A DNA stretch of 64,000 bases. Origin: an uncultured Chroococcidiopsis sp. (GTDB taxonomy: Bacteria; Cyanobacteriota; Cyanobacteriia; Cyanobacteriales; Chroococcidiopsidaceae). The stretch covers positions 1-64,000 of the forward strand of contig CAXTYC010000028.1 of NCBI GenBank assembly GCA_964248365.1. Reading direction: 5' to 3'. Both the position numbers and the translations under genes were made by a program. The notes under the pieces are model-generated. The model was given only the letters and a program-made list of their open reading frames with translations, searched no databases and had not been told where the DNA came from. The stretch's first letter is position 1. The number at the start of each line of letters is the position of its first letter. Positions 1 to 54,273 of the stretch are shown here, in pieces.

Positions 1-518
1 TGACCCTTTTGAGGTCGCGCGTTTTTCTTCGTTCCCTTGGTTGGATTGTTTCGTTTCGTTAGGTGGAACCAATTTAACCACTGGATTCCCTGGACTCTTT
101 GCCGATAACGAAAGAATATTTCGGCGGGAATTTTCTCCTTGTGGGAGTTTTTCTCCAGTAAAGTCGGGTCTTTTTGTTGTGTCCCGCTTCCGCTTAGGTC
201 GCTTTTTCAGGCTCTGTTTCACCGTAGGGACTCCCCGTTAGCATGAGAGATTTGGGGGAGAATAATTCTTCCCCAAACTCTCTCGCCAGTGTCACCCCGC
301 AACGGATGTCTGATTGCGCCCCCATCCCAGCTTCACCCTCCAGAAACCGAGTCTGGTCAGTGTGGGCAGATAGGGAGTCACATCTGAGTCGGATGGGCAG
401 GGCTTTCACCTGCATCAGACCAAGAGTTCAACCGTACTTTCGTACTTGCTCTGGACGAGCTAGGTTGGTGAGGTTATTTACGGACTGAATACCGTGATTC
501 GCTCACAACGAATCGCAC
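1..518 (-). mobile_element. Group II intron, 5' part (domain I; IIB/chloroplast-like class); RT ORF and domains V/VI would lie beyond the left edge
   Basis: Minus strand begins GTGCGATTCGTT at 518 (GUGYG consensus); contains GGTGAAAGCCC, CTAACGGGGAG, an EBS2-like hairpin CGCAA-tcagACATCcg-TTGCG (298-318), an EBS1-like hairpin GGAATCCAGT-GGTTAA-ATTGGTTCC (65-89) and AACCAAGGGAACGAAGAAAAACGC near the domain I end. Confidence 0.85.
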
Positions 519-35702: not shown

Positions 35703-35919
35703 ACTCTACTGCCACTTATTTTCACTAATCTCCTGAGACTAAAATGTGGTAACAGCAAAAGTCAAGCTAAATTATTGAAAGTATTTCTTTTCTTAACGAA
35801 CTCAAAAAAACTACCTAATGCTTGTCTAGTCACACTTTCAGAGCAAAAATTTTTTCTATACATCTTGAAGTGAGTTGTGATAAACTGCTTGAGATTGATT
35901 TCCATTGGTAATACTTCTC

Positions 35920-35938
35920 TATTGAGAAGTAATATCAC
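35920..35938. promoter_or_regulatory. Putative Fur box between divergent tonB and exbB
   Basis: ATTGAGAAGTAATATCAC resembles the GATAATGATAATCATTATC consensus; iron-uptake context. Confidence 0.45.
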
Positions 35939-36000
35939 TTGAATAGCCGAGTTAGCTAGGAAACTGGCTGTGCCTAATTTGATTATTCTTGAACAAGTAC

Positions 36001-36654
36001 ATGAGAATTAATAATGTGTTTACAGCAGGCGGCGTAGTTATGTTTCCCCTGCTGGGGTTTTCAATATTGGCGATCGCGCTAATTGTCGAGCGTGTAACAT
36101 TTTGGGTGCGGATTACTAAACGACAGCGCCGAGTTGTGCGAGAAGTGTTAAATCTCTATCGGCATGATAACGTCGTATCAGCTATAGATTTGCTCAAACA
36201 CAATGCAGATTTGCCAATGGCAAGAATTTTTTTAGCAGCTTTAGAACTTGAGCAACCTAACCCAGAAGAATTTCGCCTCGCCTTAGAAAGTGAAGCACAA
36301 GCCGAAATTCCATTACTTAAAAGATTTAACAACATTTTTGAGACAATTATTAGCCTTGCACCCCTGTTGGGTTTACTTGGTACTGTTTTGGGATTGATTG
36401 CATCCTTTGCCTCTCTCGATATCGGGGATGTGGGAGGTAGCAAAACAGCTAGTGTTACATCTGGAATTAGTGAAGCTCTAGTTTCAACAGCATCAGGCTT
36501 GGTGGTTGCTATCTTTACGCTTTTATTTGCAAATACATTTCGGGGATTATACATCCGCCAAATTGCACAGATTCAAGAATACGGTGGTCAGCTAGAATTA
36601 CTCTACCGCCGTCGCTATGAACGAGGGGAAAAAACTTATGCGTCTACCAGATGA
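36001..36654 (+). CDS. exbB: ExbB (MotA/TolQ/ExbB family)
   Basis: GG.VM.PL, APLLGLLGTV.G, GISEALVSTA.GL. Confidence 0.95.
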   Translation: MRINNVFTAGGVVMFPLLGFSILAIALIVERVTFWVRITKRQRRVVREVLNLYRHDNVVSAIDLLKHNADLPMARIFLAALELEQPNPEEFRLALESEAQAEIPLLKRFNNIFETIISLAPLLGLLGTVLGLIASFASLDIGDVGGSKTASVTSGISEALVSTASGLVVAIFTLLFANTFRGLYIRQIAQIQEYGGQLELLYRRRYERGEKTYASTR

Positions 36655-37042
36655 ACCGGATATTCCAGCGCAGATCAACATCGTGCCGATGATCGATGTC
36701 ATCTTCGCAATTTTGACCTTTTTTATCATGTCAACGCTGTTTCTGACTCGTTCTGAGGGGCTGTCAGTCAATTTACCCCAAGCTTCCTCAGCAAAAGCTC
36801 AGCCGGCAGCTCCAATTACAATTACGATAGATGCCCAAGGAAAACTAGCATTAAATCGAAAGTCAATTCAACTCCAAGCGCTAGATGGTGAAGTACGGCA
36901 GATGATTAAGCCAAATCAGGAAGCGTTGGTAGTTTTGAATGCAGATAAGTCTGTAACTCATGGTCAAGTGGTGAGTGTAATGGATATATTACGACAAGTA
37001 CCAGGAGCAAAGTTGGCGATCGCCACGCAGAGGATTCGTTAA
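36638..37042 (+). CDS. exbD: ExbD/TolR
   Basis: INIVPMIDVIF.IL.FF, LNADKSV.HG.VV.VMD. Confidence 0.95.
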   Translation: MRLPDEPDIPAQINIVPMIDVIFAILTFFIMSTLFLTRSEGLSVNLPQASSAKAQPAAPITITIDAQGKLALNRKSIQLQALDGEVRQMIKPNQEALVVLNADKSVTHGQVVSVMDILRQVPGAKLAIATQRIR

Positions 37043-37254: not shown

Positions 37255-38103
37255 TTAAGAATGAAATGGTACAGTTGCTAAAGGTAGGAATGCCAAGAGC
37301 AACCATAGTAATGACCACTTTAGTTGAGGCTGGGTGGTTGGTTCAGGGGAAGTTAGTAGGGCTTCGATGCGTTCTGTAAAGCGATCGCTTTGAGCAATGG
37401 CACTGAACGCAGCACAGAAGCTTGTCATCGGCATGATTGAAGAACGCACTACTAACACTAGAGACTCTGCCAACACTAGCGGATCTACTTGTTGTGCTGC
37501 CCAAGCGTCAGCTCGTATTTCCCGTAAAAGTAAGAGTTCTTGCCATAAGGCTTCTGTATTCGGCAACCAAGCGGTACAATTGCGTATCCAGCCAAGCCAG
37601 AAAAACCAGAAGGTATCTCGGTAATAGTAATGTGCTTGTTCATGGGCAATGACGGCTGATAATTGCTCTGGTCGGAGTGTGTGCAACAAACCGAGGCTGA
37701 CAACTAATTCTGGCTGCCAAAAACCAACTAATGCACTAAATAGGGCGTTCGTTTCCAGCACTCGACTGTTTCTATCACCCAGATTTTGCACAGGGTATGT
37801 ACGGGTTTTTTGTACAGAACGCCATCCCTCCCAGGCAAGTTTCAATCCTAAAAAGCCAACTATTGCAAACAAAAACCAAGTTAGCCAGTAGCTAAATCGT
37901 CCGACTTGCAACCCGATCATGGTTCCCTGGGTTCCCATGCAAAGCACTGCCAAGCCTGTGATGAATAGTAGCAGTGGCGGGAACAGAAAGAAAAATAGCG
38001 ATCGCCCCCAACGCCGATTCCAATTATCTTTAGTATCCGCACACCAGCTTTGTCGTACAGCGATTGCCATTGTCAATGCAGCCAAAATCATGAATAAATG
38101 CAT
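37255..38103 (-). CDS. M56-family (BlaR1-like) membrane metallopeptidase
   Basis: G.WQPELVVS, HEQAH..RD, E.RAD; paired with blaI. Confidence 0.9.
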   Translation of the reverse strand: MHLFMILAALTMAIAVRQSWCADTKDNWNRRWGRSLFFFLFPPLLLFITGLAVLCMGTQGTMIGLQVGRFSYWLTWFLFAIVGFLGLKLAWEGWRSVQKTRTYPVQNLGDRNSRVLETNALFSALVGFWQPELVVSLGLLHTLRPEQLSAVIAHEQAHYYYRDTFWFFWLGWIRNCTAWLPNTEALWQELLLLREIRADAWAAQQVDPLVLAESLVLVVRSSIMPMTSFCAAFSAIAQSDRFTERIEALLTSPEPTTQPQLKWSLLWLLLAFLPLATVPFHS

Positions 38104-38522
38104 TACTGTTCCTCCCTAGCGCGACGTGCGGCTTGAATTCGTTCGGCGATCGCTTCTAATTGTTCGCAGCTGGCATAATCAAGACTATCTGCAAATGCAG
38201 CTACCACATCTGGGTTGCCTACTGCTAAAAATTTGTGTAAATTTTCATGTGCAACGATCATCTGCGCCTGTTCTTTCGACACCAGTGGATGCCAATAAAA
38301 GGCACGTTCTTGTTTATCACACCTTAGCCAGCCTTTTTCAGTCAACCGACGTAGTACGGTAGTGACCGAGGTATAAGCTAATTCTCGATTGGGATCGGTG
38401 AGAATGCGATCGTGTACGTCCTTGACAGTGACAGAACCGAGTTCCCAGACTATATGCAAAATCTCTGTTTCTAGTGGACCTAAAGACAGTTGTTTAGGAC
38501 GGTAATCAGGCAGAGGAGCCAT
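38103..38522 (-). CDS. BlaI/MecI/CopY transcriptional regulator
   Basis: LGPLE.EIL..VW, LAYTSVTTVL.RL.EKG. Confidence 0.95.
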   Translation of the reverse strand: MAPLPDYRPKQLSLGPLETEILHIVWELGSVTVKDVHDRILTDPNRELAYTSVTTVLRRLTEKGWLRCDKQERAFYWHPLVSKEQAQMIVAHENLHKFLAVGNPDVVAAFADSLDYASCEQLEAIAERIQAARRAREEQ

Positions 38523-38567: not shown

Positions 38568-40670
38568 TCAAGTTTCTATTAGCTTTTGTACTTGATTAAT
38601 CAACTCTGTCATCGGAAAAAGATATTTTCCGATTTCTGGATGGTCTTTTAAATTTTTCAAAACACGAGAGTTATCTGGAATAAAAAAGATGTGTTTGTAA
38701 GATACAAGTTCAGTTTTTTTTTCACTTAAATCAGAATCTTCACTTATTACCCACAAAATATTGCTAATTTTATGTTGATTGTAAAATTCATCTTCTGTCG
38801 TATAAGTCTGCTTCCATCTTTCACGCAAAGTTCTTTTTAAAGTTACTCCTATATACCATCCACTTTTCGTTTCAACCCAGTTATCTATTTCTAGCCCTGC
38901 CGTAAGCATAGGTTTTCCACCTGTTTTAATCCCAAAATAATTAAAAATGAATTCAATACTATTTTCTAAAGCTCTGCCTGCTCTAGTTTTTCTTTTTTGT
39001 GCAACTCTTTTTTCATACTCTTGGCATAATGCTGTTAATACAACATCCAAATCACTTTCACATATATTTTCATCAAAAATATTTAATCTTGCTCCCAAGT
39101 TTTCTTTTACACTTCTATATATTTCAACGATTAAATCTCGTTCTTTATTAATAGCCAGCATTCCTGTAAAATCATCCCACTCTCTAATCAATGTCACTAA
39201 ACCTTGCTCTTTTTTTGTATCAAGTATAGCTTTCGCATACTTTTTAACAAAGTCATTGGTTTCAGTTACTGGCACTTTTTCTAGTGCTGCATTAGTAGGG
39301 ATCATTAATTCTTTTATTGCTATTGCAAAAATCAAATAATCTTTAGGAGTTATTAAAATTTTTTCTAAATCTATTAACAATTTTTCATATTCAAGTCTAA
39401 TCCTACTATCTTCTACTAATTGCTCGAACAACGATTGCTCAAAAACAGAACGTAAAATTTTTAGTTGATTTTCTACTGTTTCTTCTCTTAAAGATGTAAG
39501 CTTATAGGTGGTTGTTAAAGTATTGTAGATTGTTTCAATGCGTTTAGTATCTTTTCCTAATTGTTTAGCGCCGCTTCTAATTATGTAGCGCAAATACCAG
39601 TAACATTTCTCCCAAACTGTTAAGTTAGTTACTGTTTTAAATCCTGCCTGTTGTAGTTCTTCTGGTCGATATGTCATGGTATCAAGTTTTTCCAAAATGT
39701 TTGCTGCTATTTTAACTACCACAGGTACAGCAACACCATTACCAAACTGCCTGTAAGCAGCAGCAGCACTTTCAGGCAGTATAAATTCTTCAGGGAAACC
39801 TTGTAATCTTGCACACTCACGGGGTGTCAACATTCTAGGGTTTTTACCTTCTTGTACAATTAAACATTCTTTTCCATCTTTGTAGTATCTTGAAACTAAA
39901 GTATTAGATGGTTTGTCCAAATTTGCTAATTGTACAACAAATCCAACTCCTCTTTCTTTATTTCTTTCTGAGCGTTTTTGATGTCCTGCCCACAGCTTGT
40001 CAGATATGGTAAATTTATCTGATACAGTTTCTTCTAGTATTGACCTTAAAGGTATCGCCACGCCTTGAATATCTGGAAACTCATAATTTAAATTTTCTCT
40101 AAAACAAACCATGTAAAATCTCTCTCGTCTTTGAGGAACAAGAGAGCTAGAGTCTATAATTTTGCAATGTAACGAATAATTTAATTTATTTTCAATAAGT
40201 TCTTTAACTATATTGAATGTTTTTCCTTTGTCGTGAGAAGGAAAATTTTTCACGTTTTCTAATAGTAATACTTTCGGTCTTTTTACCTGCGCTATTCTGA
40301 TAATATCAAAAAATAGATTTCCCTGCTCCAAATCATCAAAACCATGATTTTGACCCAGATAATTCCTGGCTGATACTCCGGCTAGACTAAAAGGTTGACA
40401 AGGAAACCCAGCAGTTAATAAATCATGTGAGGGAATAAGCTGGTCTAGTTGTTCATCTGATATTTCTATTTTTGTAAATTCTTTAATATCTCCACTCGGA
40501 CATTCACCAAAGTTTGTTTTATAGGTTCTTCTCGCTGTTGCATCAATTTCTGACGAGAATACACACTTTCCGCCAAGTGCTTGTAAAGCTATCCTAAAGC
40601 CTCCTATTCCGGCAAATAAATCTATGAATGTAAACTTTGGTTTTTCTGGTGGTGGGAATGGAATATTCAT
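38568..40670 (-). CDS. Dcm-like DNA (cytosine-5) methyltransferase fused to CCGG-family PD-(D/E)XK restriction endonuclease
   Basis: DLFAGIGG, GFPCQPFS, ENV, PQRRER, LQGFP, QFGNGV; then QKRKTRAGRALE and KRTLRERWKQ. Confidence 0.85.
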   Translation of the reverse strand: MNIPFPPPEKPKFTFIDLFAGIGGFRIALQALGGKCVFSSEIDATARRTYKTNFGECPSGDIKEFTKIEISDEQLDQLIPSHDLLTAGFPCQPFSLAGVSARNYLGQNHGFDDLEQGNLFFDIIRIAQVKRPKVLLLENVKNFPSHDKGKTFNIVKELIENKLNYSLHCKIIDSSSLVPQRRERFYMVCFRENLNYEFPDIQGVAIPLRSILEETVSDKFTISDKLWAGHQKRSERNKERGVGFVVQLANLDKPSNTLVSRYYKDGKECLIVQEGKNPRMLTPRECARLQGFPEEFILPESAAAAYRQFGNGVAVPVVVKIAANILEKLDTMTYRPEELQQAGFKTVTNLTVWEKCYWYLRYIIRSGAKQLGKDTKRIETIYNTLTTTYKLTSLREETVENQLKILRSVFEQSLFEQLVEDSRIRLEYEKLLIDLEKILITPKDYLIFAIAIKELMIPTNAALEKVPVTETNDFVKKYAKAILDTKKEQGLVTLIREWDDFTGMLAINKERDLIVEIYRSVKENLGARLNIFDENICESDLDVVLTALCQEYEKRVAQKRKTRAGRALENSIEFIFNYFGIKTGGKPMLTAGLEIDNWVETKSGWYIGVTLKRTLRERWKQTYTTEDEFYNQHKISNILWVISEDSDLSEKKTELVSYKHIFFIPDNSRVLKNLKDHPEIGKYLFPMTELINQVQKLIET

Positions 40671-42219: not shown

Positions 42220-43934
42220 TCAGCTTATCTTTGTTGCAGCTTTGATACATTCAGCTTTGAGGAGAACTAAATTATCAGTCTTTATAACAGCACAAGCATC
42301 CATTAATGTCGATAAGATAGGGGGATTCTGTAAGTTATTAATCGCTTGTTGTGCTGCTGGCTGATATTGTTGCAACCAGTTATTATTAACTATATATTCA
42401 GACGTAAATGCAGAACGTTCTAACAACCAATAAGTAATGCGGTGTTTTTGGATGAAATCTTTAAGTTGGTTAATATTATGACTATATTGAGTGTTAATTA
42501 AATCAAGCATTCGCTGCTTGAATTGAGCGTAATATTTGGTATGGAAGGGTAAAGCGAATTCTTTACCTACCAAAACCGACCTGTTCGCAAAGATGGGAAT
42601 GTTATCTGCTTCTTCAGAAGTGGATGCAATGACAATATCTTGCGGTTGTTGCAGTAAAAACTCATACAATACAGGTACAGTACCCGTTACATAGGGAGTT
42701 TTGGGGAAAGATTTTAAAGTGCTAGGGTAAAAAATTAGCACAACACCAATAATACCTGCGCACCCGAAAGCGACAAATTGCCTTTTATTCGCTTTCGACC
42801 ATTGCACTACAGCATCCACAATTACAGTCAGCGCGATCGCACTAGCTAAAGCAAGTACCATCTTAAAGGTATGATGGGTGTACCGACTAGGCCAATGTAG
42901 CTTAAATGCGACGGCATGAGCAGTAAAAAACATCGTTAAACACGCTATTACTACCTGTGGCAAAATTTTGATATTATCTTTTACCTGCTTAACTAGGGGA
43001 AAGCGAGACGGGAACTTGAGGATAATTGGTAATAAAAAGCCGATTAATAGTTGCAAAGGTGCAATTAATGCCAAACAACCGCTATCTCTACCATCTAGCC
43101 AAAAACTAATAGTATTATGAGTAAAGTAACTGACTCTGCCTCCATGCCAATACTCTGGCATAGTTCGAGCGGAGGCAGCAGTAATTGTTGGTCCGAATTG
43201 ACCCGCTTGAATTGCATAAGGTAAAATTATTGCACCACAAATAATCACCGCAGCAGCGAATAGTCGAAAATCTTTGCGGTTTTGAGCAAAGCTGATTCTT
43301 CGATTATGTAAGCTAAATAACCTCAGAAATAAAATTAATAAATCTACGAAAGCTATTAAAGGATATATTAAAGCTTGGAGTGCGATCGCACTCAATGTAC
43401 CTAACCAAGAATTTCGTAATAAATAATATATAAATGCCAAAAATAGCGGATAAATAAAATCTCTAGGAGTGGCAGAAAATAAATCATCGTGCAAACCAAG
43501 ACTTTGGTTCAAAAGTAAGGTAGCCATAAATCCTGCCATTGGTACTGCGAGTATCTGCATACAGACTACAAAGCAATAGCTAGTTGTAATCGTTCCCACC
43601 ACTATTGGGAAAATTTTGCTAAACGAAATCGGGTCGATGCCAAGAAAAGTAGTTATTTTATAAATAAGACTATACCCAATTGGTGTAACTGACTGAAAAT
43701 AATCAGCAATCAAATCATTTGGAAATAAATTTTTGTTGAAGTAGCGATATACCCAAGGGAGATATTCTCGTGCATCATCGCTAACTACATACTTACTACT
43801 AAAACCTTGCCGCATTCCGATGACAATGTAAGTAATCGCAAAAGCTAGGCTTAAGCTGTACCAAAAAATCACAGCTGACCGAGATTTATTTTGTTGATTT
43901 TCTTGATTAATTGGTATTGTCGAAAATACTTGCA
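42220..43934 (-). CDS. Polytopic membrane protein, GT-C glycosyltransferase-like
   Basis: SDDAREY after the first TM, ~11 hydrophobic segments, soluble C-terminal domain. Confidence 0.65.
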
Positions 43935-44431
43935 TTTGGCTCTTACAGTAAAAACATAAGCCCACTTTACTATATTTGGTGTTGGTTATTACCTAACGAA
44001 CCGCAAAATATAAAAGTTTGTAACTACTCAGGTTGCAGAGGAAGAAAAACAGGGACTTCCATAAAAACTTGCAAGCTGTAAAAAATCCGTTGATGCCAGG
44101 CTGAGCCTGGAAATGAAGCATTTTCTACTCGCACTCAGGCTTAGCCCACAAGGCATAGGGCGCTCTGCTCCCTACCGTTTGCATACTCATAGGCATTACC
44201 AACCTTTCTGATTAAATACCACAGAATTAACTCCTAAATTCTTAAAGATTTTAAGTATTTCTTAAGTGATATTACTGATGACCCAAGTTAGCATGGCTAG
44301 GCTAACTTAGTACAAATAAATTCAGCCTTTGCAAGTTTCAAATCCCCATTTGAAGGGAAAGAAACTTTGCTATAAAGCTTGAATTATCTTCATCAATTCA
44401 GCAATTCATTTATAACTCATCTGTCTTTTCT

Positions 44432-45562
44432 GTGGCACTTCCAACAGTTACTCCAGGTCAATCACTTAGCCCTCAACAAAAAACGGGTTTAAATCTAGTT
44501 ACTCATTTACACAAAGGACGTGATGTTGTATTAGCAATTGACCTGACCGAGAGTGTAGGAATAAACAGCGAAGGTCGCATCCGCCTACGTCAGATTATAG
44601 AAGATAGCTTAAAGCCTGGGGATTCAGTATATGTTGTTCCTTTTGCATCTGATGTAAGTTCACTTGAGAGCGTATCAGATTCAAATCCATTGGGAACCCC
44701 GATCAATTTTGGTAGCAAAAGTCAAGACAATATTGAAAAAATTTTACAAAAAATACCACAATCAGCCGATTTAAAGCTGCAAAATACAGATATTCAACGA
44801 GCAGAGTTAACCGTTTATCAAGGTGTAGCTCAACTGAATCAAAATCGTCTGCAACAAAATCAACCAATCAAGCCACAATCAATTGTTTGGATTACTGATG
44901 CGCCACTTTTAGCTAATTCAGGTAAAGAGTGGATTGAAACTCCAGCTAATAGCCCTTTTAGAGTAAAAGATTCTCCAGAAAGTCAAGCTCGTCAGGCTTG
45001 GCTGAAAACTTTACCGTTGCATAAACGAGAGTTATTAATTAAGAATAACCATAAAGAATACAAAATTGCTGTTGTTGATATAGATCCAACCGTTCAAGAG
45101 TTTTGCACTATAGCACCCAGCGGTCAGGAAATTTGTAAAGTAAATTCTTACTTATTTGGGCAGTTATGGTTCCCTACATTAATATTATCTCTTGGATTAG
45201 CTTTTATCCCATTTTTACTGTGGTATTTGATTAGTCTTCGCAAAAAATGGCGGATTATAGTAACTTCTGATTTTAACGAAGATGAAAAAGAATGCCGTCC
45301 TCTACTACCTGGTAAATGTTACGCCATTGGTGCGGCAGACTCTAGGTGTGTAGATGAAATTGAGTGTCCTGGTTCAGAAGTAAGAGCTTATCTAGAACGT
45401 AGAGGCAATCAACTTTATTTAGTGCCTACTATATTAGCACCAATTCACTGGAATGGTAAAGAACTTATTAAGCGGACTCGCTTAACTGGTAATCGAATAA
45501 AACTGAATTGCCCCGACGAAAAAAGTGGTGATTTCTATATCGACCTCAAACTTAAGAAATAA
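44432..45562 (+). CDS. vWA domain + TM helix + FHA-like C-terminal domain
   Basis: DVVLAIDLTESVG (MIDAS-like), NTDI, WITDA; TM LWFPTLILSLGLAFIPFLLWYLI; beta-rich tail AIG...AYLERRGNQLYL...WNGKEL. Confidence 0.75.
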   Translation: MALPTVTPGQSLSPQQKTGLNLVTHLHKGRDVVLAIDLTESVGINSEGRIRLRQIIEDSLKPGDSVYVVPFASDVSSLESVSDSNPLGTPINFGSKSQDNIEKILQKIPQSADLKLQNTDIQRAELTVYQGVAQLNQNRLQQNQPIKPQSIVWITDAPLLANSGKEWIETPANSPFRVKDSPESQARQAWLKTLPLHKRELLIKNNHKEYKIAVVDIDPTVQEFCTIAPSGQEICKVNSYLFGQLWFPTLILSLGLAFIPFLLWYLISLRKKWRIIVTSDFNEDEKECRPLLPGKCYAIGAADSRCVDEIECPGSEVRAYLERRGNQLYLVPTILAPIHWNGKELIKRTRLTGNRIKLNCPDEKSGDFYIDLKLKK

Positions 45563-45582
45563 CTTTATAACGAAGGTAAATT

Positions 45583-48500
45583 ATGTACAATCAATCTTCG
45601 GCAAATGAAAGACAGTATCAGGGAATCAACCGTACTATTTGCATCGGCTTAGGAGGTACAGGTAGAGATGTATTAATGCGAATTCGTCGTCTAATTGTAG
45701 ACCAATACAAAGATTTGAGTAACTTACCCGTTGTTAGCTTTGTTCATATTGATACTGACAAAGAAGCAACTCAATCTGTTAGTTTGCGTACAGGTAACAT
45801 CTATCAAGGTGTTGACTTGGGATTTCAAGATGCAGAAAAAGTCAACGCTACAATGACGGCGCAGCAAGTTTCTGAGTTAGTTCAAGGACTAGAGCAATGT
45901 CGTTCTAACCGTCTTCAACCCAGTCCTTACGAACATATTGCTCAGTGGTTCCCGCCACAGCTTTTACGCAATGTCAGAGCAATAGATCAAGGTGCACAAG
46001 GTATTAGACCTGTAGGTAGATTAGCCTTCTTTCACAACTATCTGAAAATTAAGCAAGCTATTGAAATCGCAGAACAGCGGACAAGAGGACATGAGCAAGA
46101 TTTACTGCGAAATTTTGGTTTAATTGTTGACCCAGGATTGAATATTGTTGTTGTAGGTTCTCTGTGCGGTGGTACAGGTAGTGGCACATTTTTAGACATA
46201 GCTTATAGTCTTAGATATGCCTACCCTGATGTCAAACAACTTCTCGGTTATTTAGTTATTAGTCCTGAGTTATATGGTAACACTCCTAATATGTGTGCCA
46301 ATACTTACGCTGCTTTGATGGAACTTGACTATTATTCTAGCCCTGGTACAGAGTTTAAGGCTTGCTATAACCAGCAATATCTCACAGTTGTACAAGAAAA
46401 ACGTCCTCCTTTTGACTATACTTATTTAGTTTCTAAATCTACTGAGCAGGGTAATTATGTTATTGATAAACAGCGAAAGCTTTGTAATGTAATTGCTCAT
46501 AAGATTGCTCTAGATTTTTCGAGCGAATTGGCTCCCATTGTCAAGGGAATGAGAGATAATTTTGCTCAACATCTAATTCAGGAAGACGATCATCCTCGTC
46601 CTAATAGCCAAGGGTATCTAACATTTGGGTTAGCTGCTATTTATTTTCCACGCGATCGCATTTCCCAAATCACAGTAGCACGGATTAATTCAAAACTAGT
46701 TAATTTCTGGCTGATGGGAGAAGGACAAAGCCCAGATCCTGTTAAATTGCTAGATCAATTTCTAATTGAATATCGCTGGCACAGTAATTTAGACAAAAAA
46801 GATGGTCTAATTACGAAACTAGAAGCAACAACCCTAGAATCAGAAAAAAATTTCACTAACTTAATGAATGCTTGGAAAACTAAGCAAGAAAATAAAATTA
46901 GTGAATGCAAAAATAAAGACGATCGCTCTAGTTTGCTCCGACAACTACAAAGAGATTTCAAAGAGCAATTTTATAAGATTAAATTTGGAGAAACAGAAAG
47001 TAACAGAGGAATTTGGTTAACCAAGCTAATTAAGAGTCGTGCAAATTTAGCTTTGCAACTGCGGCAAGATATTGATAGTTACTTATCTGGTATACTTACA
47101 CCCAGTAACCAACACTTTTCTATTGCCAACGTTCGTAACTGGCTAGATACTCTTCAGACAGAGTTGAATACCTATCAATATGATTTAGAAGAAAAAATCA
47201 GAGGATTGAATAATTCCAGAAACCTGGAAGAACTAGAGAAGAAATGGGAACAGACAAACAAAACTATTCAAGACATTGAGGAAGAATTTAACTTACCAGT
47301 ATTCAGTAATAAAAACAGTCGTGTACAAGATGAAGCAAGAAAGGTAGCTAAAGAGACTGAAAATGCTATTAAACATAACTTTAATCTGGCTGTAGCACTT
47401 GAAGCTCTAGAAATCGTTAAGGTTTTACAACAGCACACGCAAATAAGAGCTAGTCAGTCAACCAACTTATATCGCCTAGTAGATGACTTAAAAAGTCACT
47501 ATGAGAAAATGCAAGCTGCGCTCAAACAATCAAATTCTGACGAAATGAGCGGCGAGGAAATCTTTTCTGATGAAGACCTTGATATTTGTTACAATGCTTT
47601 GTTGCCACAAAAAGAATACCGCTCTCAGGTTGTACAAATTACTCAGAAAATCTTAGAACCAATAGGAGTCGGACAATCTTTAGCAATTCTTTTAGATCAA
47701 AGTCTCACAAATACCGAACAGCTTAAACACGAAATTGACTCTACAGTTAACCATTTATTTGGTTCTCGTAGTGCTGATATTGTACAATCTGTAATCAAGC
47801 GCTTCACCCACAAATATCCGTCTTCAGAACGTGCAGTTCGGTTAGGACAAATTCTCCGCGAAGCTCAACCGCTTCTACCGCTTAACTTAACTGCTCCATA
47901 CTTTCACAATAATTCTGCTAAACAAAGTAAGCTGGTGGGTTTCAAAGTTACTGATGAGCCTGAAGTTAAACAATTCAATACTGTTTTAACAGACAAATTG
48001 GCAATTCCAGATAACGTACTCAAGCCTACTCAAGCAGAGGATAAAGTTGTAATTGTCAGTGAATATGCTGCTTTTCCACTTAGATTAATTGATGGTTTGC
48101 AGCAGTTGAAAGATCATTACTACCTGCAAAGAAAACATTCGGCTAATGCTCCACTGCATAACGAGCGCCGCGACGACATATTTACAGACATTATTCCACC
48201 AGATGTATCAGTCATGCAGGATTTACAGGATATTTTCTATCCTTGTCTTGCTTTTGAATTAATTCAACAGAACCAGGAAACACAGCAACTAGAGTTTCAA
48301 TATTTTGATGAATTCCGAGGTGTTTACAAAACAGATTCTCTTAGTCCAACTTGGAAACAAGGCCTTCAAGAATTGGTTAATAATTCTAACATGAGAGTGG
48401 CTCTCCAGCAATTACTTGATAGAGCCATTACAGACATAGAAAATCAACGGACAAAATGGCAGGGATACTACTTGCCTAAACTCCAAAAATTTGTTGATCA

Positions 48501-48861
48501 GGTTGATAATTTGCCAGATGACGATATTAATTATCCTTACCGTTTTATGGTAGTTGGTTCACGGGGAACTGATGACACTTCTGCTAAAGAAGGAGTTATT
48601 AACCGCTTTTATACACGAATGCAACAGCGAGTTAAAGCTTTACCAGAGCAAAATAAAGTTTTACCAGCAAGTACCCCAAGTCAAAAAGTTCTCACTGGCG
48701 AAGTAGTTGACGATTATGCAACAGATTCTGGTGACAATAGAACACGACGGCGGGTAGAACTGGAAAGGCTAAAACAGGATGTTGATGATGGCATTATTAC
48801 CCAAGAAGAGTATGAATACGAACGCCAGGAAATCCTGAATAAATATCCTTTGCGGAGATAA
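45583..48861 (+). CDS. Tubulin/FtsZ-like GTPase (Tubulin_2/FtsZl type) with long helical region and SHOCT-like C-terminus
   Basis: IGLGGTG (T1), HIDTD, GAQGIRPVGR (T3), SLCGGTGSG (tubulin signature); C-terminal ELERLKQDVDDGIITQEEYEYERQEIL. Confidence 0.9.
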   Translation: MYNQSSANERQYQGINRTICIGLGGTGRDVLMRIRRLIVDQYKDLSNLPVVSFVHIDTDKEATQSVSLRTGNIYQGVDLGFQDAEKVNATMTAQQVSELVQGLEQCRSNRLQPSPYEHIAQWFPPQLLRNVRAIDQGAQGIRPVGRLAFFHNYLKIKQAIEIAEQRTRGHEQDLLRNFGLIVDPGLNIVVVGSLCGGTGSGTFLDIAYSLRYAYPDVKQLLGYLVISPELYGNTPNMCANTYAALMELDYYSSPGTEFKACYNQQYLTVVQEKRPPFDYTYLVSKSTEQGNYVIDKQRKLCNVIAHKIALDFSSELAPIVKGMRDNFAQHLIQEDDHPRPNSQGYLTFGLAAIYFPRDRISQITVARINSKLVNFWLMGEGQSPDPVKLLDQFLIEYRWHSNLDKKDGLITKLEATTLESEKNFTNLMNAWKTKQENKISECKNKDDRSSLLRQLQRDFKEQFYKIKFGETESNRGIWLTKLIKSRANLALQLRQDIDSYLSGILTPSNQHFSIANVRNWLDTLQTELNTYQYDLEEKIRGLNNSRNLEELEKKWEQTNKTIQDIEEEFNLPVFSNKNSRVQDEARKVAKETENAIKHNFNLAVALEALEIVKVLQQHTQIRASQSTNLYRLVDDLKSHYEKMQAALKQSNSDEMSGEEIFSDEDLDICYNALLPQKEYRSQVVQITQKILEPIGVGQSLAILLDQSLTNTEQLKHEIDSTVNHLFGSRSADIVQSVIKRFTHKYPSSERAVRLGQILREAQPLLPLNLTAPYFHNNSAKQSKLVGFKVTDEPEVKQFNTVLTDKLAIPDNVLKPTQAEDKVVIVSEYAAFPLRLIDGLQQLKDHYYLQRKHSANAPLHNERRDDIFTDIIPPDVSVMQDLQDIFYPCLAFELIQQNQETQQLEFQYFDEFRGVYKTDSLSPTWKQGLQELVNNSNMRVALQQLLDRAITDIENQRTKWQGYYLPKLQKFVDQVDNLPDDDINYPYRFMVVGSRGTDDTSAKEGVINRFYTRMQQRVKALPEQNKVLPASTPSQKVLTGEVVDDYATDSGDNRTRRRVELERLKQDVDDGIITQEEYEYERQEILNKYPLRR

Positions 48862-48879
48862 GTATTTAGTGTTTTTTTA

Positions 48880-48900
48880 GGTGGGCAATGCCCACCCTAC
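48880..48900. repeat. REP-like palindrome; second copy at 57371-57391
   Basis: GGTGGGCAATGCCCACCCTAC. Confidence 0.8.
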
Positions 48901-48929
48901 GGATTTATCTAATTTGAGATTAAAAGTTT

Positions 48930-50510
48930 ATGGATATTTCACTTGCGAAATTTATAGCTTTATTGCCACCGTATTTAGTTATTCTTATTTTTGTATTGGT
49001 AATTTTACCATCTTTAGCAACTATTTGTTTACGCTTTGCTCTATATAAGCGTCTTGTTTTTTTAGAAAAGCGTGTCAGAAGACTAATTAATCGGGGAGAG
49101 CGAGGTAAGCAGCCAGAAATTATTGAAGAATTGGAAAGAAGGTTCAAGGAAGCTAGCAGCAACTTAGATCATGTTAATACAGCAGCATTAATAGAGCAAG
49201 TTTATAGCCGCGAGAAGGTTTTGTTTTTTTCTTGTGAACAAATTGATTACTTCTGCCGTAATCTACCTAATTTGCTAATAGCTTTTGGTTTGTTAGGAAC
49301 TTTTATAGGTATTACAGTAAATTTGACTTCCTTGAGTCAATCAATTAGTCAAACTAATAGTAACGATGTTACCAGTTTAGTGCGCGAACTACAGGAACCT
49401 TTAAAAGGTATGGGTATTGCCTTTACTACTAGCTTGACTGGTATATTCTGTAGTGCTTCATTAACAATATTTAATTTAATTTTCAATACCAATGTAACTA
49501 AGTATAAGCTGATTAGTGCTATTGAAGATTATCTAGATAATATTTATTTACCGAAAGTTCAAGGAAATAATCGCTTAGATAAAGCTGTCGATCGCTTAGT
49601 ATTTGAATTTAAAGATTTTTTGGGCAGATTTGGTACTACTGTACGCGATGCGGTAGAGTCATCGCTAGGGGCAAAAATTCAACAAATTGTTGATGTCAAT
49701 AAACAAGCAACTGATCTAGCTCGTCAAGTTTACACTGGATTTCAAGAATCTTCAGGCACAATATCTAGTTCTGCTAGTGAATTCAAATATGCTATTTCTA
49801 CTTTTGAGAATGCTGTAGCGGCGATGATTGCCAATACTGAGAAATATCAACAAGTGGCTAACTTATTTGAAAATAGTCAATTTCCTGAAAAATTATCAAA
49901 GGCTACAGACAAATTAGCTGATATACAGAATAGGTTTTCTCAGTCTGCTTTTAGTTTAGCTAACACGGCTGAATCTATCGAAACGGCAGTAATTGAAACT
50001 AGAAGCTCTAGTCAAAATATCACAAAGTTAGCAGAAGAAATCAGCAATATTAATCAAACCTCGATTCAAGTACTGGAGTTACATCAAAGCAGCCAGCAGT
50101 CTCTTGGTGAAATCATTCCACAACTGAAGGAAGGAGCGCAGAGTTTCCAATTAGCTGTTACCAAGCTTGATAAGCTAGAAAAACGAATTGCAGATAAACC
50201 CGATAGTTGGAGTGATGTACAAGTTGAGTTGGCGCAGTTGGTGGAGACTCTGAAAAATTATACAGAGCAGGTAAATTTGGGGATTGAGAACGTAGGCGAT
50301 CGCTTTGTAGAAAGTATTAGCAATCACACAGATAATAATAAACATCATCTTCTAGCTATTGAACAAAATCTTGAGCAATGTATTAATTCTTTACTTGATA
50401 CCAAATATGAAAATCGCTGGATGACACAATTAATAGAAAAACAGGAAGATACAAATAAATCTAGTAAGTCTGAGTTAAATAATTTATTTAATGGATTAAC
50501 TAAACAATAA
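48930..50510 (+). CDS. ZorA-like MotA/TolQ/ExbB channel subunit with ~300-aa coiled-coil tail
   Basis: Three TMs; PNLLIAFGLLGTFIGI and GMGIAFTTSLTG; long heptad-rich C-terminus. Confidence 0.8.
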   Translation: MDISLAKFIALLPPYLVILIFVLVILPSLATICLRFALYKRLVFLEKRVRRLINRGERGKQPEIIEELERRFKEASSNLDHVNTAALIEQVYSREKVLFFSCEQIDYFCRNLPNLLIAFGLLGTFIGITVNLTSLSQSISQTNSNDVTSLVRELQEPLKGMGIAFTTSLTGIFCSASLTIFNLIFNTNVTKYKLISAIEDYLDNIYLPKVQGNNRLDKAVDRLVFEFKDFLGRFGTTVRDAVESSLGAKIQQIVDVNKQATDLARQVYTGFQESSGTISSSASEFKYAISTFENAVAAMIANTEKYQQVANLFENSQFPEKLSKATDKLADIQNRFSQSAFSLANTAESIETAVIETRSSSQNITKLAEEISNINQTSIQVLELHQSSQQSLGEIIPQLKEGAQSFQLAVTKLDKLEKRIADKPDSWSDVQVELAQLVETLKNYTEQVNLGIENVGDRFVESISNHTDNNKHHLLAIEQNLEQCINSLLDTKYENRWMTQLIEKQEDTNKSSKSELNNLFNGLTKQ

Positions 50511-50568
50511 CTTCTAAAGAGGAACCGGAGTTTTCTAAGCCTCATAAATACTATTTGAGCTTTTTATT

Positions 50569-51363
50569 ATGCGTCATCGTTCACGATATGTTGAGTCGAA
50601 TGAAGACTTAAATATTTGGTCTGCTTTTACAGATTTAATGTCTAATGCTTTCATGATAGCAATCTTATTTTTATTACTAATGATCGTTAAATCTGTAGTT
50701 GCACAATCAACATTAGACAAAACTCTTAATAGTCTAGGTAATAGAAAAGATGAAGTGGGAACATTGGCTAGACAGGTTAAAGTTTTACAAGCGAAAGCAA
50801 ATAGAACTGATGAATTAGAGCGTCAAGTTGCAGTTTTACAAAAACAGCTATCAGGACAAAGAGAAACAGGCGCACCACCGATTATTGTGATTGAAGATGA
50901 ACAAGCCTATCGATTTGCTTCAGGTAGTGCAGAAATTCCGCCGCCAATGAAGACTTATATCAAAAATAAGATAGTACCTGAAATTGAACGCAATACGCAG
51001 CAATATCATATCAATGTGGTAGAGTTAATTGGTCACACTGACGGTCAGGCTAATGGCAGTGCAGCTAGTAATCTAGACGAGAATTTGGAGAAAGTAGCGA
51101 TCGCTCAAAATCCTGTTAGTAATCTGCATTCAGGCTCTAACGCAGATTTGGGACTGATGCGAGCGTTGGCAGTGGTAAGATTACTGCGTGACATCCAGAC
51201 GAAAACTGGACATCTAAAAGGGCTGAAATTTCGAGCCTATTCTGCTGCACAGCTAATTTTACCAAATGGAGAGTTTGCCTCTGTTAGTCGTCATCCAGAT
51301 GCAACCAGGCGACGGATAGAAATTCGTTTTACTCGTTTGGGTGAGGTGACAAGGGTTAGATAG
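50569..51363 (+). CDS. ZorB/MotB-like TM + OmpA-type peptidoglycan-binding protein
   Basis: WSAFTDLM (conserved TM Asp), FASGSAEI, GHTD, RALAV, RRIEIRF. Confidence 0.85.
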   Translation: MRHRSRYVESNEDLNIWSAFTDLMSNAFMIAILFLLLMIVKSVVAQSTLDKTLNSLGNRKDEVGTLARQVKVLQAKANRTDELERQVAVLQKQLSGQRETGAPPIIVIEDEQAYRFASGSAEIPPPMKTYIKNKIVPEIERNTQQYHINVVELIGHTDGQANGSAASNLDENLEKVAIAQNPVSNLHSGSNADLGLMRALAVVRLLRDIQTKTGHLKGLKFRAYSAAQLILPNGEFASVSRHPDATRRRIEIRFTRLGEVTRVR

Positions 51364-51624
51364 CAAGCGCGATCGCACAATCCGCAATAAACGTATACAC
51401 ACAAATGTTTTGTCGGGGCGGGTTTAGTCAAGCTACTTGGATAATTATGCCTTCAGTCGCTTAGGATGAATTTAAAAGTATAAAGGTGCTGTATTGAACC
51501 TCGCAGCAATTGTACAGGAGGTCTCATGGTGGCGCTCATGCTAAATGTTAAAGGGGCAAAGAAAATTCAATCCCTTTTCCCCTTTCCCTTTCCCCTTTTC
51601 CCTACGAGGCAAGAAGTCTATTGT

Positions 51625-52302
51625 ATGGCAGCCAGTCGCATAACTAATATTCCTCCACTCGAAAGTGGCGATCGCTTGACTTGCTCTGAATTTGAGCGTC
51701 GTTATCAAGCAATGCCACAGATTAAAAAAGCTGAATTAATTGAAGGAGTCGTGTACGTAGCTTCACCTGTACGTGCTAGCCGTCATGGTAGACCCCATGC
51801 TCAAATCGTCGGTTGGTTATTAGTCTACAGTGCCGCGACACCCCTAGTTGATGTCGCCGATAACGCCACAGTACGCCTGGATGCAAATAATGAGCCTCAA
51901 CCCGATGCTTTATTACGACTAGAGCCCCAAGCGGGAGGCTCCTCTCGCATTAGTGATGATGACTATATTGAGGGTGTACCAGAATTAATTGCAGAAATCG
52001 CTGCTAGTAGTGCCTCCTATGACCTGAATGACAAACTTAATGCTTATCGTCGTAATGGGGTTCGGGAATATATCGTCTGGCAAATTTACGAGAACCGCCT
52101 TGACTGGTTTTATCTAGATAATGGTCGATATGTTTCGCTGCAACCGGATGCTATAGGCGTAATCCGCAGTCAGATTTTCCCAGGATTATGGCTGGCGGTA
52201 AACGCCCTGCGTGAGGGAGATTTAGCCCAGGTGTTAGCAACCCTACAGCAGGGACTACAATCAGCAGAACATCAAAGTTTTGTGCAGCAATTGCGTCTTT
52301 AA
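51625..52302 (+). CDS. Uma2 (DUF820) family putative endonuclease
   Basis: PPLESGDRL, AELIEG.V, EPQPD, PELIAEI, Y.RNGVREY. Confidence 0.92.
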   Translation: MAASRITNIPPLESGDRLTCSEFERRYQAMPQIKKAELIEGVVYVASPVRASRHGRPHAQIVGWLLVYSAATPLVDVADNATVRLDANNEPQPDALLRLEPQAGGSSRISDDDYIEGVPELIAEIAASSASYDLNDKLNAYRRNGVREYIVWQIYENRLDWFYLDNGRYVSLQPDAIGVIRSQIFPGLWLAVNALREGDLAQVLATLQQGLQSAEHQSFVQQLRL

Positions 52303-52416: not shown

Positions 52417-54027
52417 TCAACTTAACTGCGCTACGACTTGATCTTGTAGCAAGGCTTGGTTTGTTAGCAAGTCTTCTACTGTCATGCGTAAAAAGCGCTG
52501 TTTGTCAACTTGAAACAATACTCTAATGCGATCGCTCCCTGGATAACCAGGCGGTGTCAAAGAGGCGATCGTTCTTGCACCTTCACGATCATTGAGTGGC
52601 TGCACTTGTTTTTTCCCGCTATCTAGACGCTTGGTGATTAGGCGATCGCCATCAAAATACACTTCTGTACCACCAGTTTCCGCCCCCAATTCGCCGATGA
52701 TTAATTCAATACTGGGCTGCTGATCCACCGATGCGCCTAAAACTAATTCTACAGGCGTATCCATTGGGTAAGGCTGTCCTTCTTTAATCAAAGGATGCCA
52801 GTTATGACAATTATTTCGCCTATCCCAGTAGCGGATACCGTAACTGTGGTAGAGAAAATCTTTCAGTTCCACACCTTGAGATATTTGCAACGCACCAAGG
52901 GCGATCGCTTCAAACGGACGTTCGCAACGAATTTTTTCAGGCTCAAAATACTGCTGTACCCATGTCTGCACAGCTGGCATTTGTGCTGTACCACCAACCA
53001 ACAACACAGCCTTAATATCTGTATTTTCTAATCCTTGTCGCCGTGCTTGTTGCAATAGCTGATTCATCGACTGATCTAGCTGCTCAAAAAACGAGTGTTC
53101 GGCGAGAATTTTTTCTAACTGATCGCGGTCTAATTCCAGTTCGTAGCTTTCAAATGTCTCATCATTAAAGTAAACTTCATTTGCCCCAGTTTGGGAAGAT
53201 AACTGAATCTTTAACCGTTCTGCTAGTCGAGTAGTCAAAGGAGTTGCCGCCAATCCTTGTCTAGTGGCAAAATAATCAACAATCCAGTTATCAATATCAG
53301 AACCACCTAAATTCTGCCCTGCTTTTGCTAATACACGGGCTGTTTTTACCTTCTGTCCTGATTTTTCCGCCAGGGATTTTTTACCCCATTTAAGTAGAAA
53401 CCCAGGCTGCTTCTTAGTCGCACCACCATCGAGCCGCACTAGAGAAAGATCGAGTGTACCGCCGCCGAAATCAATTACTAGCAAAATGTCCTGTTCTACC
53501 ATCCCATATCCCAAAGCAGCAGCTGTCGGCTCATCCAAAAGCCGCACCTGTTCTACTGGTAGCGATTGGCACACTTGCCCAAGCCAGAGACGGTAAGCCT
53601 CAAAGCTGTCTACTGGTACAGTCAAGATCAAAGATTCAGTAGGCGAGGTTGCAAGTTTGTCAATGATTTGGCTGAGGAACCATTGCCCGACTTGTTCAAA
53701 CGAGACAATTTGCCCGTCTAGCTCTGGCAAGAAGCCTTGAATATCTGCACCAATTCCTCTTTTGAAGCTGCGAAAAAATCGCGGATCTGTGGTTAAATCA
53801 AGCCCGCGATCGCGTACAGCCTGTCCTACTACTACCTTATTTTGTGCCGCATCTTCTACATATACCAAACTAGGGATCAGGGGAGGATTCTGCCCCAATT
53901 GCTCAGATAAACCAGGTAAACTTAGGGTTTCTGGTTGCTGGGTAACAGGGTTCCAACGGGCTATACAAGTGTTGCTAGTACCGAAGTCAATTGCGTAGGA
54001 TGAAGTCCTTGTCGTAGACATCGCCAT
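52417..54027 (-). CDS. Hsp70/DnaK-family protein
   Basis: AIDFGTSNT, DEPTAAALGY, DFGGGTLD, LLVGGTA. Confidence 0.92.
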   Translation of the reverse strand: MAMSTTRTSSYAIDFGTSNTCIARWNPVTQQPETLSLPGLSEQLGQNPPLIPSLVYVEDAAQNKVVVGQAVRDRGLDLTTDPRFFRSFKRGIGADIQGFLPELDGQIVSFEQVGQWFLSQIIDKLATSPTESLILTVPVDSFEAYRLWLGQVCQSLPVEQVRLLDEPTAAALGYGMVEQDILLVIDFGGGTLDLSLVRLDGGATKKQPGFLLKWGKKSLAEKSGQKVKTARVLAKAGQNLGGSDIDNWIVDYFATRQGLAATPLTTRLAERLKIQLSSQTGANEVYFNDETFESYELELDRDQLEKILAEHSFFEQLDQSMNQLLQQARRQGLENTDIKAVLLVGGTAQMPAVQTWVQQYFEPEKIRCERPFEAIALGALQISQGVELKDFLYHSYGIRYWDRRNNCHNWHPLIKEGQPYPMDTPVELVLGASVDQQPSIELIIGELGAETGGTEVYFDGDRLITKRLDSGKKQVQPLNDREGARTIASLTPPGYPGSDRIRVLFQVDKQRFLRMTVEDLLTNQALLQDQVVAQLS

Positions 54028-54273
54028 GAATAGTAAAGTCAACAGTCTTTGTAACTTAATGTTATCTTTACCAGCGGTCTATACTATTTTAGATTTTGGA
54101 GCCATAGATTTTGGATTGGAAAATCCAACTATAGCAATCCTATTTAACGAACCGCAAAGGCGCAAAGAACGCGAAGTGAAGAAGTAGAGGGAGGTTTACA
54201 AATCCTGCACGGAATGCTATATCAGGAGTTTTAGCAACATTTGTAGCAGTCAGAAAACCTTATGGTATAATAT

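Follow-up and report, generated by a model that had tools for sequence, protein, structure and literature searches.

A four-gene FtsZl1 cluster with a ZorAB-like motor pair in a cyanobacterium: candidate parts of one envelope machine

What does an ion motor resembling that of the Zorya antiphage systems do when it is encoded directly after a giant tubulin-like GTPase? This question is raised by 4 genes, here called g1 to g4, in the 64,000-nucleotide stretch of DNA that we analyzed (hereafter the window), which covers positions 1 to 64,000 of contig CAXTYC010000028.1 from an uncultured Chroococcidiopsis sp. (GenBank assembly GCA_964248365.1). Judged from the encoded sequences, the cluster corresponds to the FtsZl1 (Pfam Tubulin_2)-vWA-OmpA module in its cyanobacterial version, with a ZorA/ZorB-type motor as its 2 membrane components, and we estimate a probability of about 55% that the 4 products make up one accessory envelope machine of four-part, envelope-spanning design.

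The four genes and their predicted products

All 4 open reading frames (ORFs) lie in the same direction between 44432 and 51363, with gaps of 20 base pairs (bp) between g1 and g2, 68 bp between g2 and g3, and 58 bp between g3 and g4, and both the coordinates and the gaps were exactly those given in a preliminary description of the locus made from the letters alone. The block is also AT-rich, as described there, with a GC content of 0.34-0.40 in the 4 genes versus 0.425 for the window and a GC content at third codon positions (GC3) of 0.24-0.28 versus 0.34-0.40 in 4 neighboring genes. No terminator-like site was found on the forward strand between the genes, which is weak evidence because the scan found no more sites than it did in shuffled sequences. 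Contigs of relatives, 90-99% alike, extended over all 4 genes in 3 public runs (each run with 0.09 of the sampled words). One of these runs is an RNA library, in which a contig of a relative runs from the last part of g2 into the first part of g3; it hints weakly at transcription in a relative and speaks neither to level nor to strand nor to a single transcript.

The motor assignment comes from g3 and g4. The g3 protein matched 17 PADLOC ZorA models, the best being ZorA1 (2e-14), and 4 NCBIfam ZorA subfamilies, the best being ZorA_1 (3.8e-12), and no MotA, ExbB, or TolQ model of PADLOC or NCBIfam was matched. All of its scores were far under the curated cut-offs, with 45.3 bits against 190 for ZorA_1, 43.6 against 100 for ZorA_2, and 37.2 against 250 for ZorA_3, and g3 therefore stands outside every defined ZorA subfamily. 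The g4 protein reached 17.1 bits against a curated cut-off of 400 for NCBIfam ZorB1 and matched PADLOC ZorB1 at 3.2e-9. A family profile of 27 g3 members placed Escherichia coli ZorA (8qyd) first in the PDB (5.1e-8), followed by 8vvn_C, a chain of 696 amino acids (aa) named MotA/TolQ/ExbB, and no MotA or PomA chain was among the best 60 of its 105 matches. Further, BLASTP aligned g3 over transmembrane (TM) segments TM2-TM3 with the annotated ZorA of a type I Zorya system on a Pseudomonas plasmid (7e-11).

HMMER alignment of the g3 family profile (alignment A2) to 8qyd placed P113, T124, S168, D203, and Y206 of g3 on ZorA P136, T147, S184, D217, and Y220, residues whose roles are described by Hu et al. 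2024 (PMC11946911). Each of the 5 is invariant or at least 90% conserved in the 27 sequences; the ion-filter residues of the A subunit, T124 in TM2 and S168 in TM3, are invariant, as is the EDYLDNIY motif. The g3 tail matched coiled-coil, SMC, apolipoprotein, and chemoreceptor chains (SMC_prok_A, 4.3e-8), and the indels among orthologues, which range from 481 to 733 aa, fall in this tail. The g4 protein consists of one TM segment, a coiled-coil linker, and an OmpA-like peptidoglycan-binding domain, which Pfam recognized as OmpA in 2 orthologues (L071 and L073, at 8.8e-5 and 4.6e-6). Its Asp22 aligns to the W-x-S-F-S-D-x-M-S motif of the plasmid ZorB and of 8vvn_B and is the counterpart of ZorB Asp26, a TM residue described as essential (PMC11946911), and its N191, L194, and R198 correspond, by spacing and motif, to the peptidoglycan-binding residues Asn152, Leu155, and Arg159 of ZorB (PMC11946911). 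By these alignments, the residues essential in E. coli ZorAB, namely the Thr/Ser filter, the TM Asp, and the peptidoglycan-binding motif, are kept in g3 and g4; nothing that a ZorAB-type 5:2 proton motor anchored to peptidoglycan would need is missing among their residues, and the ZorAB-like reading appears right at the level of "works like." The g4 linker of ~50 aa between the TM segment and the wall-binding domain is absent in most Nostocales orthologues (215 aa) and longer in pairs of g3 and g4 that stand alone, and its length may track envelope geometry.

The protein encoded between g1 and the motor pair belongs without ambiguity to Pfam Tubulin_2, with a match (E=1.5e-101) of 340.7 bits against a cut-off of 27, and g2 is the sole Tubulin_2 gene in the genome. 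Mean column identity in an alignment of 23 orthologues (A4) was 76% over all 1092 residues; the N-terminal GxGGTG is invariant there, like the G-box, and hydropathy gave no TM segment. We accordingly describe g2 as a predicted soluble tubulin-like GTPase with an intact G-box. Its AlphaFold model was confidently helical only at residues ~360-650. A SHOCT-like C-terminal tail was considered and rejected: a Pfam search with residues 940-1092 returned no SHOCT at E<=0.01 and gave weak DMAP_binding and GvpG matches.

No Pfam, PADLOC, or NCBIfam model matched g1, and its architecture was read from an alignment of 25 orthologues (A1; mean column identity 71%) and the AlphaFold model obtained with it (predicted local distance difference test score, pLDDT, 75.8). 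The C-terminal domain matched 6ccd in Foldseek (prob 1.0, TMt 0.69), along with many FHA chains at prob 1.0, and VIA-align returned Z scores of 10.2-8 to 32 chains, nearly all of them FHA, including Rad53 FHA1 (Z 10.2, 96 aligned residues, root-mean-square deviation 2.5). The canonical phosphothreonine-binding FHA motif consists of G-R and S-x-x-H; by eye, the g1 family has I-G-E/A and V-R-A-Y-L at the expected phosphate-binding positions. Matches of residues ~24-216 to vWA domains were middling (VIA Z of 7.4 to the CLCA1 VWA, 7.0 to ITIH1, and 7.0 to Ku80). Within this region, conservation of D37, T39, S41, T119, and D156 over the 25 orthologues is complete or at least 90%, and DxSxS is the MIDAS motif (PMC2875224).

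The FHA side of the g1 membrane segment is predicted to be cytoplasmic because lysine plus arginine averaged 4.36 in the 15 residues after the TM segment and 1.40 in those before it over the 25 orthologues. Cys225 and Cys235, just N-terminal to the TM segment, are invariant in the same sequences, and such a pair would fit a periplasmic location of that side. Thus read, g1 would cross the membrane once, and its vWA domain, with the MIDAS motif intact, and its FHA fold would lie on opposite sides. The gene types proposed in the preliminary description were recovered for all 4 genes, with vWA, TM, and FHA fold in g1, Tubulin_2 in g2, a ZorA-like protein with a long tail in g3, and an OmpA-like domain in g4.

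Table 1. Coordinates of the four genes, of their domains and motifs, and of related genes in the window and in other genomes
Feature	Residues	Position	Strand	Basis or remark
g1	376 aa	44432-45562	+	vWA-TM-FHA ORF
g1 MIDAS-type motif	D37-L-T39-E-S41	44540..44554	+	D37, T39, S41 invariant in A1
g1 TM segment	241-267	45152..45232	+	single TM; Kyte-Doolittle peak 2.2
g1 FHA-fold domain	271-376	45242..45559	+	Foldseek and VIA-align on model
g2	1092 aa	45583-48861	+	FtsZl1/Tubulin_2 ORF
g2 Tubulin_2 GTPase domain	19-373	45637..46701	+	Pfam
g2 G-box GGGTGSG	196-201	46168-46185	+	invariant in 23 orthologues
g3	526 aa	48930-50510	+	ZorA-like A subunit; 'B7' family of Makarova & Koonin 2010
g3 hydrophobic segments	16-34, 112-133		+	hydropathy; a third, ~160-183, aligns to ZorA TM3
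g3 motor core TM2-TM3	P113/T124/S168, then EDYLDNIY (199-206)	49248..49547	+	profile alignment to 8qyd
g3 cytoplasmic tail	216-526	49575..50507	+	predicted helical/coiled-coil, ~310 aa, profile matches
g4	264 aa	50569-51363	+	ZorB/MotB-like B subunit
g4 Asp22, start of TM helix	motif AFTDLMS	50632..50634	+	invariant in 25 sequences
g4 peptidoglycan-binding motif	N191-x2-L194-x3-R198	51139..51162	+	S190-R198 invariant in A3
TonB		34471-35358	-	canonical TonB-ExbB-ExbD set
ExbB		35989-36654	+	Pfam 121 bits
ExbD		36617-37042	+	Pfam 108 bits
Stand-alone ZorAB-like pairs		L051-L058, L060-L065, L067, L068, L070, L071, L073-L078, L080		Oscillatoriales-type loci of other genomes; no tubulin-like/vWA gene nearby

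Earlier description and recurrence of the arrangement

The FtsZl1 family was defined by Makarova & Koonin 2010 (Biol Direct 5:33; PMC2875224), who proposed a membrane-remodeling system of a vWA protein, a GTPase, and OmpA-family proteins. Supplementary file 5 of that paper lists the same families in the same order as Ava_1847-1850, Cyan8802_4287-4290, MAE_58760-58800, and Tery_1709-1705. In Anabaena variabilis these are a vWA protein of COG2304 (Ava_1847, 381 aa), FtsZl1 (Ava_1848, 1085 aa), a hypothetical protein 'B7' (Ava_1849, 524 aa), and a COG1360 flagellar motor protein (Ava_1850, 215 aa), and the same arrangement is given there for Cyanothece PCC 8802, Microcystis NIES-843, with two 'B7' copies, and Trichodesmium. 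The file further lists an annotated MotA/TolQ/ExbB gene and an OmpA gene after FtsZl1 in 2 Deinococcus genomes, and FHA proteins adjoining FtsZl1 in 2 planctomycetes, which fits a link between FHA and FtsZl1. Like the 2010 module, the cluster in the window combines a Tubulin_2 protein above the cut-off with adjacent vWA and OmpA-family genes in one predicted operon. It differs in how the parts were read, as the g3 family was left as 'B7, hypothetical', the OmpA proteins were called membrane transport proteins, and that paper gives no motor reading, the word 'MotA' occurring 0 times in its main text.

The arrangement is therefore already described and the motor is not. The preliminary description had called the locus a candidate new system; the gene order was tabulated in 2010, which partly refutes that claim by the description's own criterion of an arrangement already described, although 'B7' was not recognized then as a subunit of MotA/ZorA type. 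New here is the proposed coupling between a tubulin-family GTPase and a ZorAB-type motor; the gene arrangement itself is not. Zorya was not yet known in 2010. In the open-access literature searched, we found no paper making the motor-tubulin link, no mention of ZorAB-like proteins or ZorA/ZorAB homologs, and no experiment on FtsZl1/Tubulin_2 proteins, and the literature passages on PF13809 that we examined hold no discussion of gene context.

Three groups of known systems come closest. The Zorya types I-III (Hu et al. 2024, PMC11946911), in which ZorAB is accompanied by ZorC/D, ZorE, or ZorF/G, share with g3 a Thr/Ser filter, a Pro kink residue, and a long tail, predicted to be helical in g3, and with g4 a TM Asp and a peptidoglycan-binding domain. 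They differ in that g3 and g4 are far under the curated ZorA/ZorB cut-offs, the partners here are a tubulin-like GTPase and a vWA-TM-FHA protein without a Zor effector, the g3 tail is shorter (E. coli ZorA has 729 aa in all), and the coiled-coil linker of g4 has no counterpart in ZorB as described in PMC11946911. TolQR-like 5:2 motors with TM-tethered vWA force transducers (Mol Biol Evol 2025, PMC12204202) likewise place a membrane vWA protein beside a 5:2-type motor, although those proteins are described with an N-terminal TM segment, a C-terminal periplasmic vWA domain, and TolQ-like motors, whereas the order here is vWA-TM-FHA and the motor is ZorAB-like. The GTPase-centric conflict systems of Kaur et al. 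2020 (eLife, PMC7159879) include a tubulin-family protein with a C-terminal helical extension beside membrane vWA proteins; as presented there, they are centered on GAP1-N2 GTPases and occur in Firmicutes and Actinobacteria, whereas no GTPase family of Pfam was matched in the 14 ORFs between 37255 and 57299 of the window, that is, no linked GAP1-type GTPase. The text of that paper contains 0 occurrences of MotA or Zorya.

A scan for g3 in one genome per species yielded 134 relatives, and 80 loci were retained, all in cyanobacteria. The g4 gene followed g3 in 75 of the 80 loci (tblastn), with g3 at the end of the sequence in all 5 misses, and 55 of the loci had g2 ahead of g3 and 52 had g1, without exception on one strand and in the order g1-g2-g3-g4. 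In 3 loci g2 was found without g1: the sequences of L002 and L029 begin inside or just before g2, and L003 has truncated g2 and g3 ORFs. The unit comprises 4 genes because the other neighbors in the window recur in only 0-2 of the 80 loci. An even sample of 401 cyanobacterial genomes was used for the linkage of g2 with g3; besides the window's own, a full-length g2 of the orthologue type was present in 37 genomes at 31-59% identity, and g3 lay within ~750 bp of it on the same contig in 36 (the exception is G079). Such recurrence of 4 genes in the same order in dozens of genomes is far beyond chance, and the tight co-occurrence expected from the preliminary description was observed in both samples.

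Distribution within genera was patchy, with g3 in 1/19, 2/5, 3/8, 2/5, and 8/9 genomes of 5 genera. Some copies were decayed: a g3 remnant with 5 stops was found in G395 (C1:4514078-4514383), and in 6 of the 37 genomes the g2 frame was in two parts or contained a stop, some of these cases being possible assembly errors. Besides G395, the genomes listed with decay are G016, G040, G183, G273, G301, and G323. The patchy distribution and the decayed copies are in favor of an accessory role.

We built a FastTree phylogeny of 79 g3 rows; of the 82 rows available, 4 with short or incomplete ORFs were left out. The 49 Nostocales rows formed one clade that follows taxonomy, and 23 rows of stand-alone pairs nested in another (Shimodaira-Hasegawa-like support 97) that also holds 5 four-gene rows, including that of the window. 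Because of this nesting, the stand-alone form appears to be derived, and most inheritance appears to have been vertical. Two long branches, the outgroup and L084, meet in the tree, which makes its root uncertain.

A candidate envelope machine and its alternatives

In the mechanism that we favor, g3 and g4 would assemble as A5B2, and, with B attached to the cell wall, proton flow would rotate A around it. The g3 tail would pass the state of the motor to FtsZl1 in the cytoplasm, and g1 would tether or nucleate FtsZl1 at the membrane via its predicted cytoplasmic FHA domain, so that a tubulin-like polymer would be assembled locally at the envelope.

Several findings weigh against one such four-part machine. 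The AlphaFold model of g2 was poor (pLDDT 61.7), with the tubulin domain itself poorly modeled, and g1 has no signal peptide, yet by the charge topology an N-terminal vWA domain of 240 aa would, unusually, be placed outside the cell. In 23 Oscillatoriales-type loci the A/B pair is present on its own, and no Tubulin_2 gene was present in 4 of the 5 such genomes tested; the motor therefore does not need FtsZl1. Conversely, FtsZl1-vWA pairs without a motor exist in other lineages and in other cyanobacterial subtypes. Finally, no paper naming Ava_1848/1849, Tery_1706/1707, or MAE_58770/58780 was found in the open-access literature.

The alternative that survives best is a true anti-phage system, a further Zorya type, which we hold to be possible with the odds clearly against it. 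The ZorAB-like sensor-motor would then detect a phage attack on the envelope and its tail would trigger FtsZl1, with g1, as the effector, which might seal the site of entry or arrest the infected cell. Equally tentative is its most specific version, a fourth Zorya-type immunity in which a wall-anchored rotary sensor would trigger polymerization of a giant tubulin, not a nuclease, and the vWA-TM-FHA adaptor would hold the tubulin at the membrane. The nearest characterized kin of g3 and g4 are indeed ZorA and ZorB, and ZorAB is known only from defense; patchy distribution within genera, the decayed G395 copy and the split or interrupted g2 frames, and the atypical GC3 of the 4 genes point the same way, as do a cytosine methyltransferase gene and a Uma2 nuclease-fold gene among the neighbors in the window and the fact that Kaur et al. 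2020 (PMC7159879) read other tubulin+vWA modules, in the form tubulin+vWA+GTPase(+HSP70), as conflict systems.

Other observations run counter to an immune role. No ZorC, D, E, F, or G was found, only ZorA and ZorB among the PADLOC Zor models being matched in the 8 genes scanned between 38568 and 54042, in agreement with the earlier remark that no known Zor effector was recognizable. In 20 genomes we compared the two 6.6-kb ends of a 20-kb region centered on the cluster with the same layout around a region 50-500 kb away on the same contig, taking ORFs of at least 130 aa and PADLOC matches at E<=1e-8. The flanks were not enriched, with matches in 23 of 166 ORFs versus 24 of 162 in the control and in 14 of 20 versus 13 of 20 loci; the test, with a small sample of related genomes, shows no enrichment and is not proof of absence. 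The defense reading offered in the preliminary description thus gained no support from these matched random places. Further, no g2 relative was encoded on phage contigs, and among 72,556 plasmids only 3 weak matches were found, to other MotA/ZorA proteins. The g3 tree largely follows taxonomy, and all 4 proteins are strongly conserved, including the vWA domain of g1, which is the putative sensor. The function may be immunity, envelope repair, or another envelope process, and any immune role of this accessory envelope machine is hypothetical.

A second alternative, which we regard as improbable, is that the vWA-FtsZl1 pair and the ZorAB-like pair are independent modules that happen to be neighbors and work separately. 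Of the 80 loci, 25 had no g2 match and held g3-g4 alone (23 of these are the rows that entered the tree), and they belong to Moorena, Okeania, Trichodesmium, Dapis, Limnospira, Planktothrix, Lyngbya, and Limnoraphis. In these pairs A and B are separated by about 15 to 1750 bp, and the surroundings, where inspected, were housekeeping (pfkB and CbiJ in L071, HisRS in L051). These pairs speak for independence, as do the 4 of 5 genomes without a Tubulin_2 gene and the vWA-FtsZl1 pairs without a motor, which are common; other cyanobacterial FtsZl1 subtypes have as partners a vWA and a 1032-aa protein, a TM-NMT1-OmpA protein, or none. Against it stand the adjacency of g2 and g3, only tens of bases apart, in 36 of 37 genomes and across families at 31-59% identity, the MotA/TolQ/ExbB and OmpA genes that also follow FtsZl1 in the 2 Deinococcus genomes (PMC2875224, supplementary file 5), and the nesting of the stand-alone pairs among four-gene rows, by which they look secondary. 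Trichodesmium carries both a stand-alone pair and, elsewhere in its genome, a complete four-gene cluster with 44-53% identity to the window for g1, g3, and g4.

Several loci related to these pairs and subtypes were recorded in addition. In Limnospira (L073), the pair is followed by an AAA_15/AAA_21 ATPase, a 263-aa ORF, and a 1920-aa alpha-2-macroglobulin, and the 1015-aa protein beside a stand-alone pair in Moorena, considered as an alr2044-type partner of another FtsZl1 subtype, was unrelated. A different cyanobacterial FtsZl1 subtype, 1121 aa long and with 27% identity to g2, is encoded at L150:7132-12166. The next gene encodes 554 aa that comprise a TM segment, a periplasmic-binding region resembling NMT1, and an OmpA domain at the C terminus, and an ABC transporter set comes after it. 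The 554-aa gene was considered as ZorA-like and ruled out as such, being that of a TM-NMT1-OmpA protein, and the locus, as predicted, joins FtsZl1 to a wall-binding domain without a motor. A second OmpA/ZorB1-like gene (213 aa, PADLOC 2.2e-9) and a Uma2 gene lie at L093:1738-2974, ~4.5 kb beyond the g3 end of the cluster.

That g3 and g4 are an ExbBD/TolQR-type energizer for outer-membrane transport or integrity is highly unlikely, since for it there is only a weak Pfam MotA_ExbB match of g3 (0.0054), which at 16.9 bits is under the cut-off of 22.9, and against it are the absence of any Pfam ExbD match in g4, the OmpA-like domain of g4 and the PDB matches of its profile, which comprise MotB-related, PomB (2e-4 to 6e-3), and ZorB chains and no ExbD or TolR chain, and the genome's own TonB-ExbB-ExbD set 12 kb upstream (34471-37042), whose ExbB and ExbD have no BLASTP similarity to g3 and g4 (E=2 and 1.4). 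The Pseudomonas plasmid ZorA is also under the Pfam MotA_ExbB cut-off, at 19.2 bits. The view that the pair is ZorAB-like and not ExbBD/TolQR-like was therefore upheld, as ZorA/ZorB models were matched, the genome's own ExbB and ExbD are dissimilar, and the key residues are kept. Cyanobacteria are not known to have flagella, which has no bearing on the ExbBD question, as that was tested directly.

Neighboring genes and implications

The remaining neighbors in the window are diverse. Beside the TonB-ExbB-ExbD set lies a 201-aa fragment of a TonB-dependent receptor barrel (32584-33189), whose gene may have been broken by a DDE transposase ORF (33388-34107). A BlaI/BlaR1-like pair on the reverse strand consists of a penicillinase-repressor family gene (38103-38522, 8.8e-30) and a gene for a 282-aa M48/M56-type peptidase (37255-38103). 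The methyltransferase gene (38568-40670, reverse strand) encodes a 700-aa cytosine-5 DNA methyltransferase (DNA_methylase 3.1e-78; PADLOC DrmMII/MTase_II) with a ~370-aa C-terminal extension that gave a weak EcoRII-C match (3.7e-4), so that the protein may be a fused methylase-nuclease. Divergent from g1, a reverse-strand gene at 42220-43965 encodes a 581-aa multi-pass membrane protein with no Pfam, PADLOC, or NCBIfam match, which is not conserved beside the cluster (1 weak match in 80 loci).

On the other side, the Uma2-family gene (51526-52302) matched PADLOC PDC-S03 at 3.9e-15, and it is followed on the reverse strand (52417-54042) by a gene for a 541-aa divergent Hsp70/actin-fold ATPase (HSP70 1.6e-30, MreB 3.5e-13, far under the DnaK cut-offs). 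This ATPase was considered as a fifth component and rejected, as it recurs in 2 of the 80 loci only. The closest locus (L002) retains the ATPase and UvdE beside g4, at 89% and 82% identity, and they were not found beside it elsewhere.

The only known role of ZorAB motors is that of phage sensors by which nucleases are recruited, and FtsZl1/Tubulin_2 proteins have been known from genomes since 2010. Reading the 'B7'/COG1360 genes as a residue-complete ZorAB-type motor leads to the hypothesis that the state of a motor controls a tubulin-like polymer at the envelope. Some ZorAB-like motors have non-Zorya partners and others stand alone, so that homology with ZorAB is not enough to assign a role in defense. 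Should the Zorya-type immunity prove true, it would be the first case in which antiviral defense is functionally linked to both a 5:2 ion motor and a prokaryotic cytoskeleton of the tubulin family, and it would assign a role to the FtsZl1 family.

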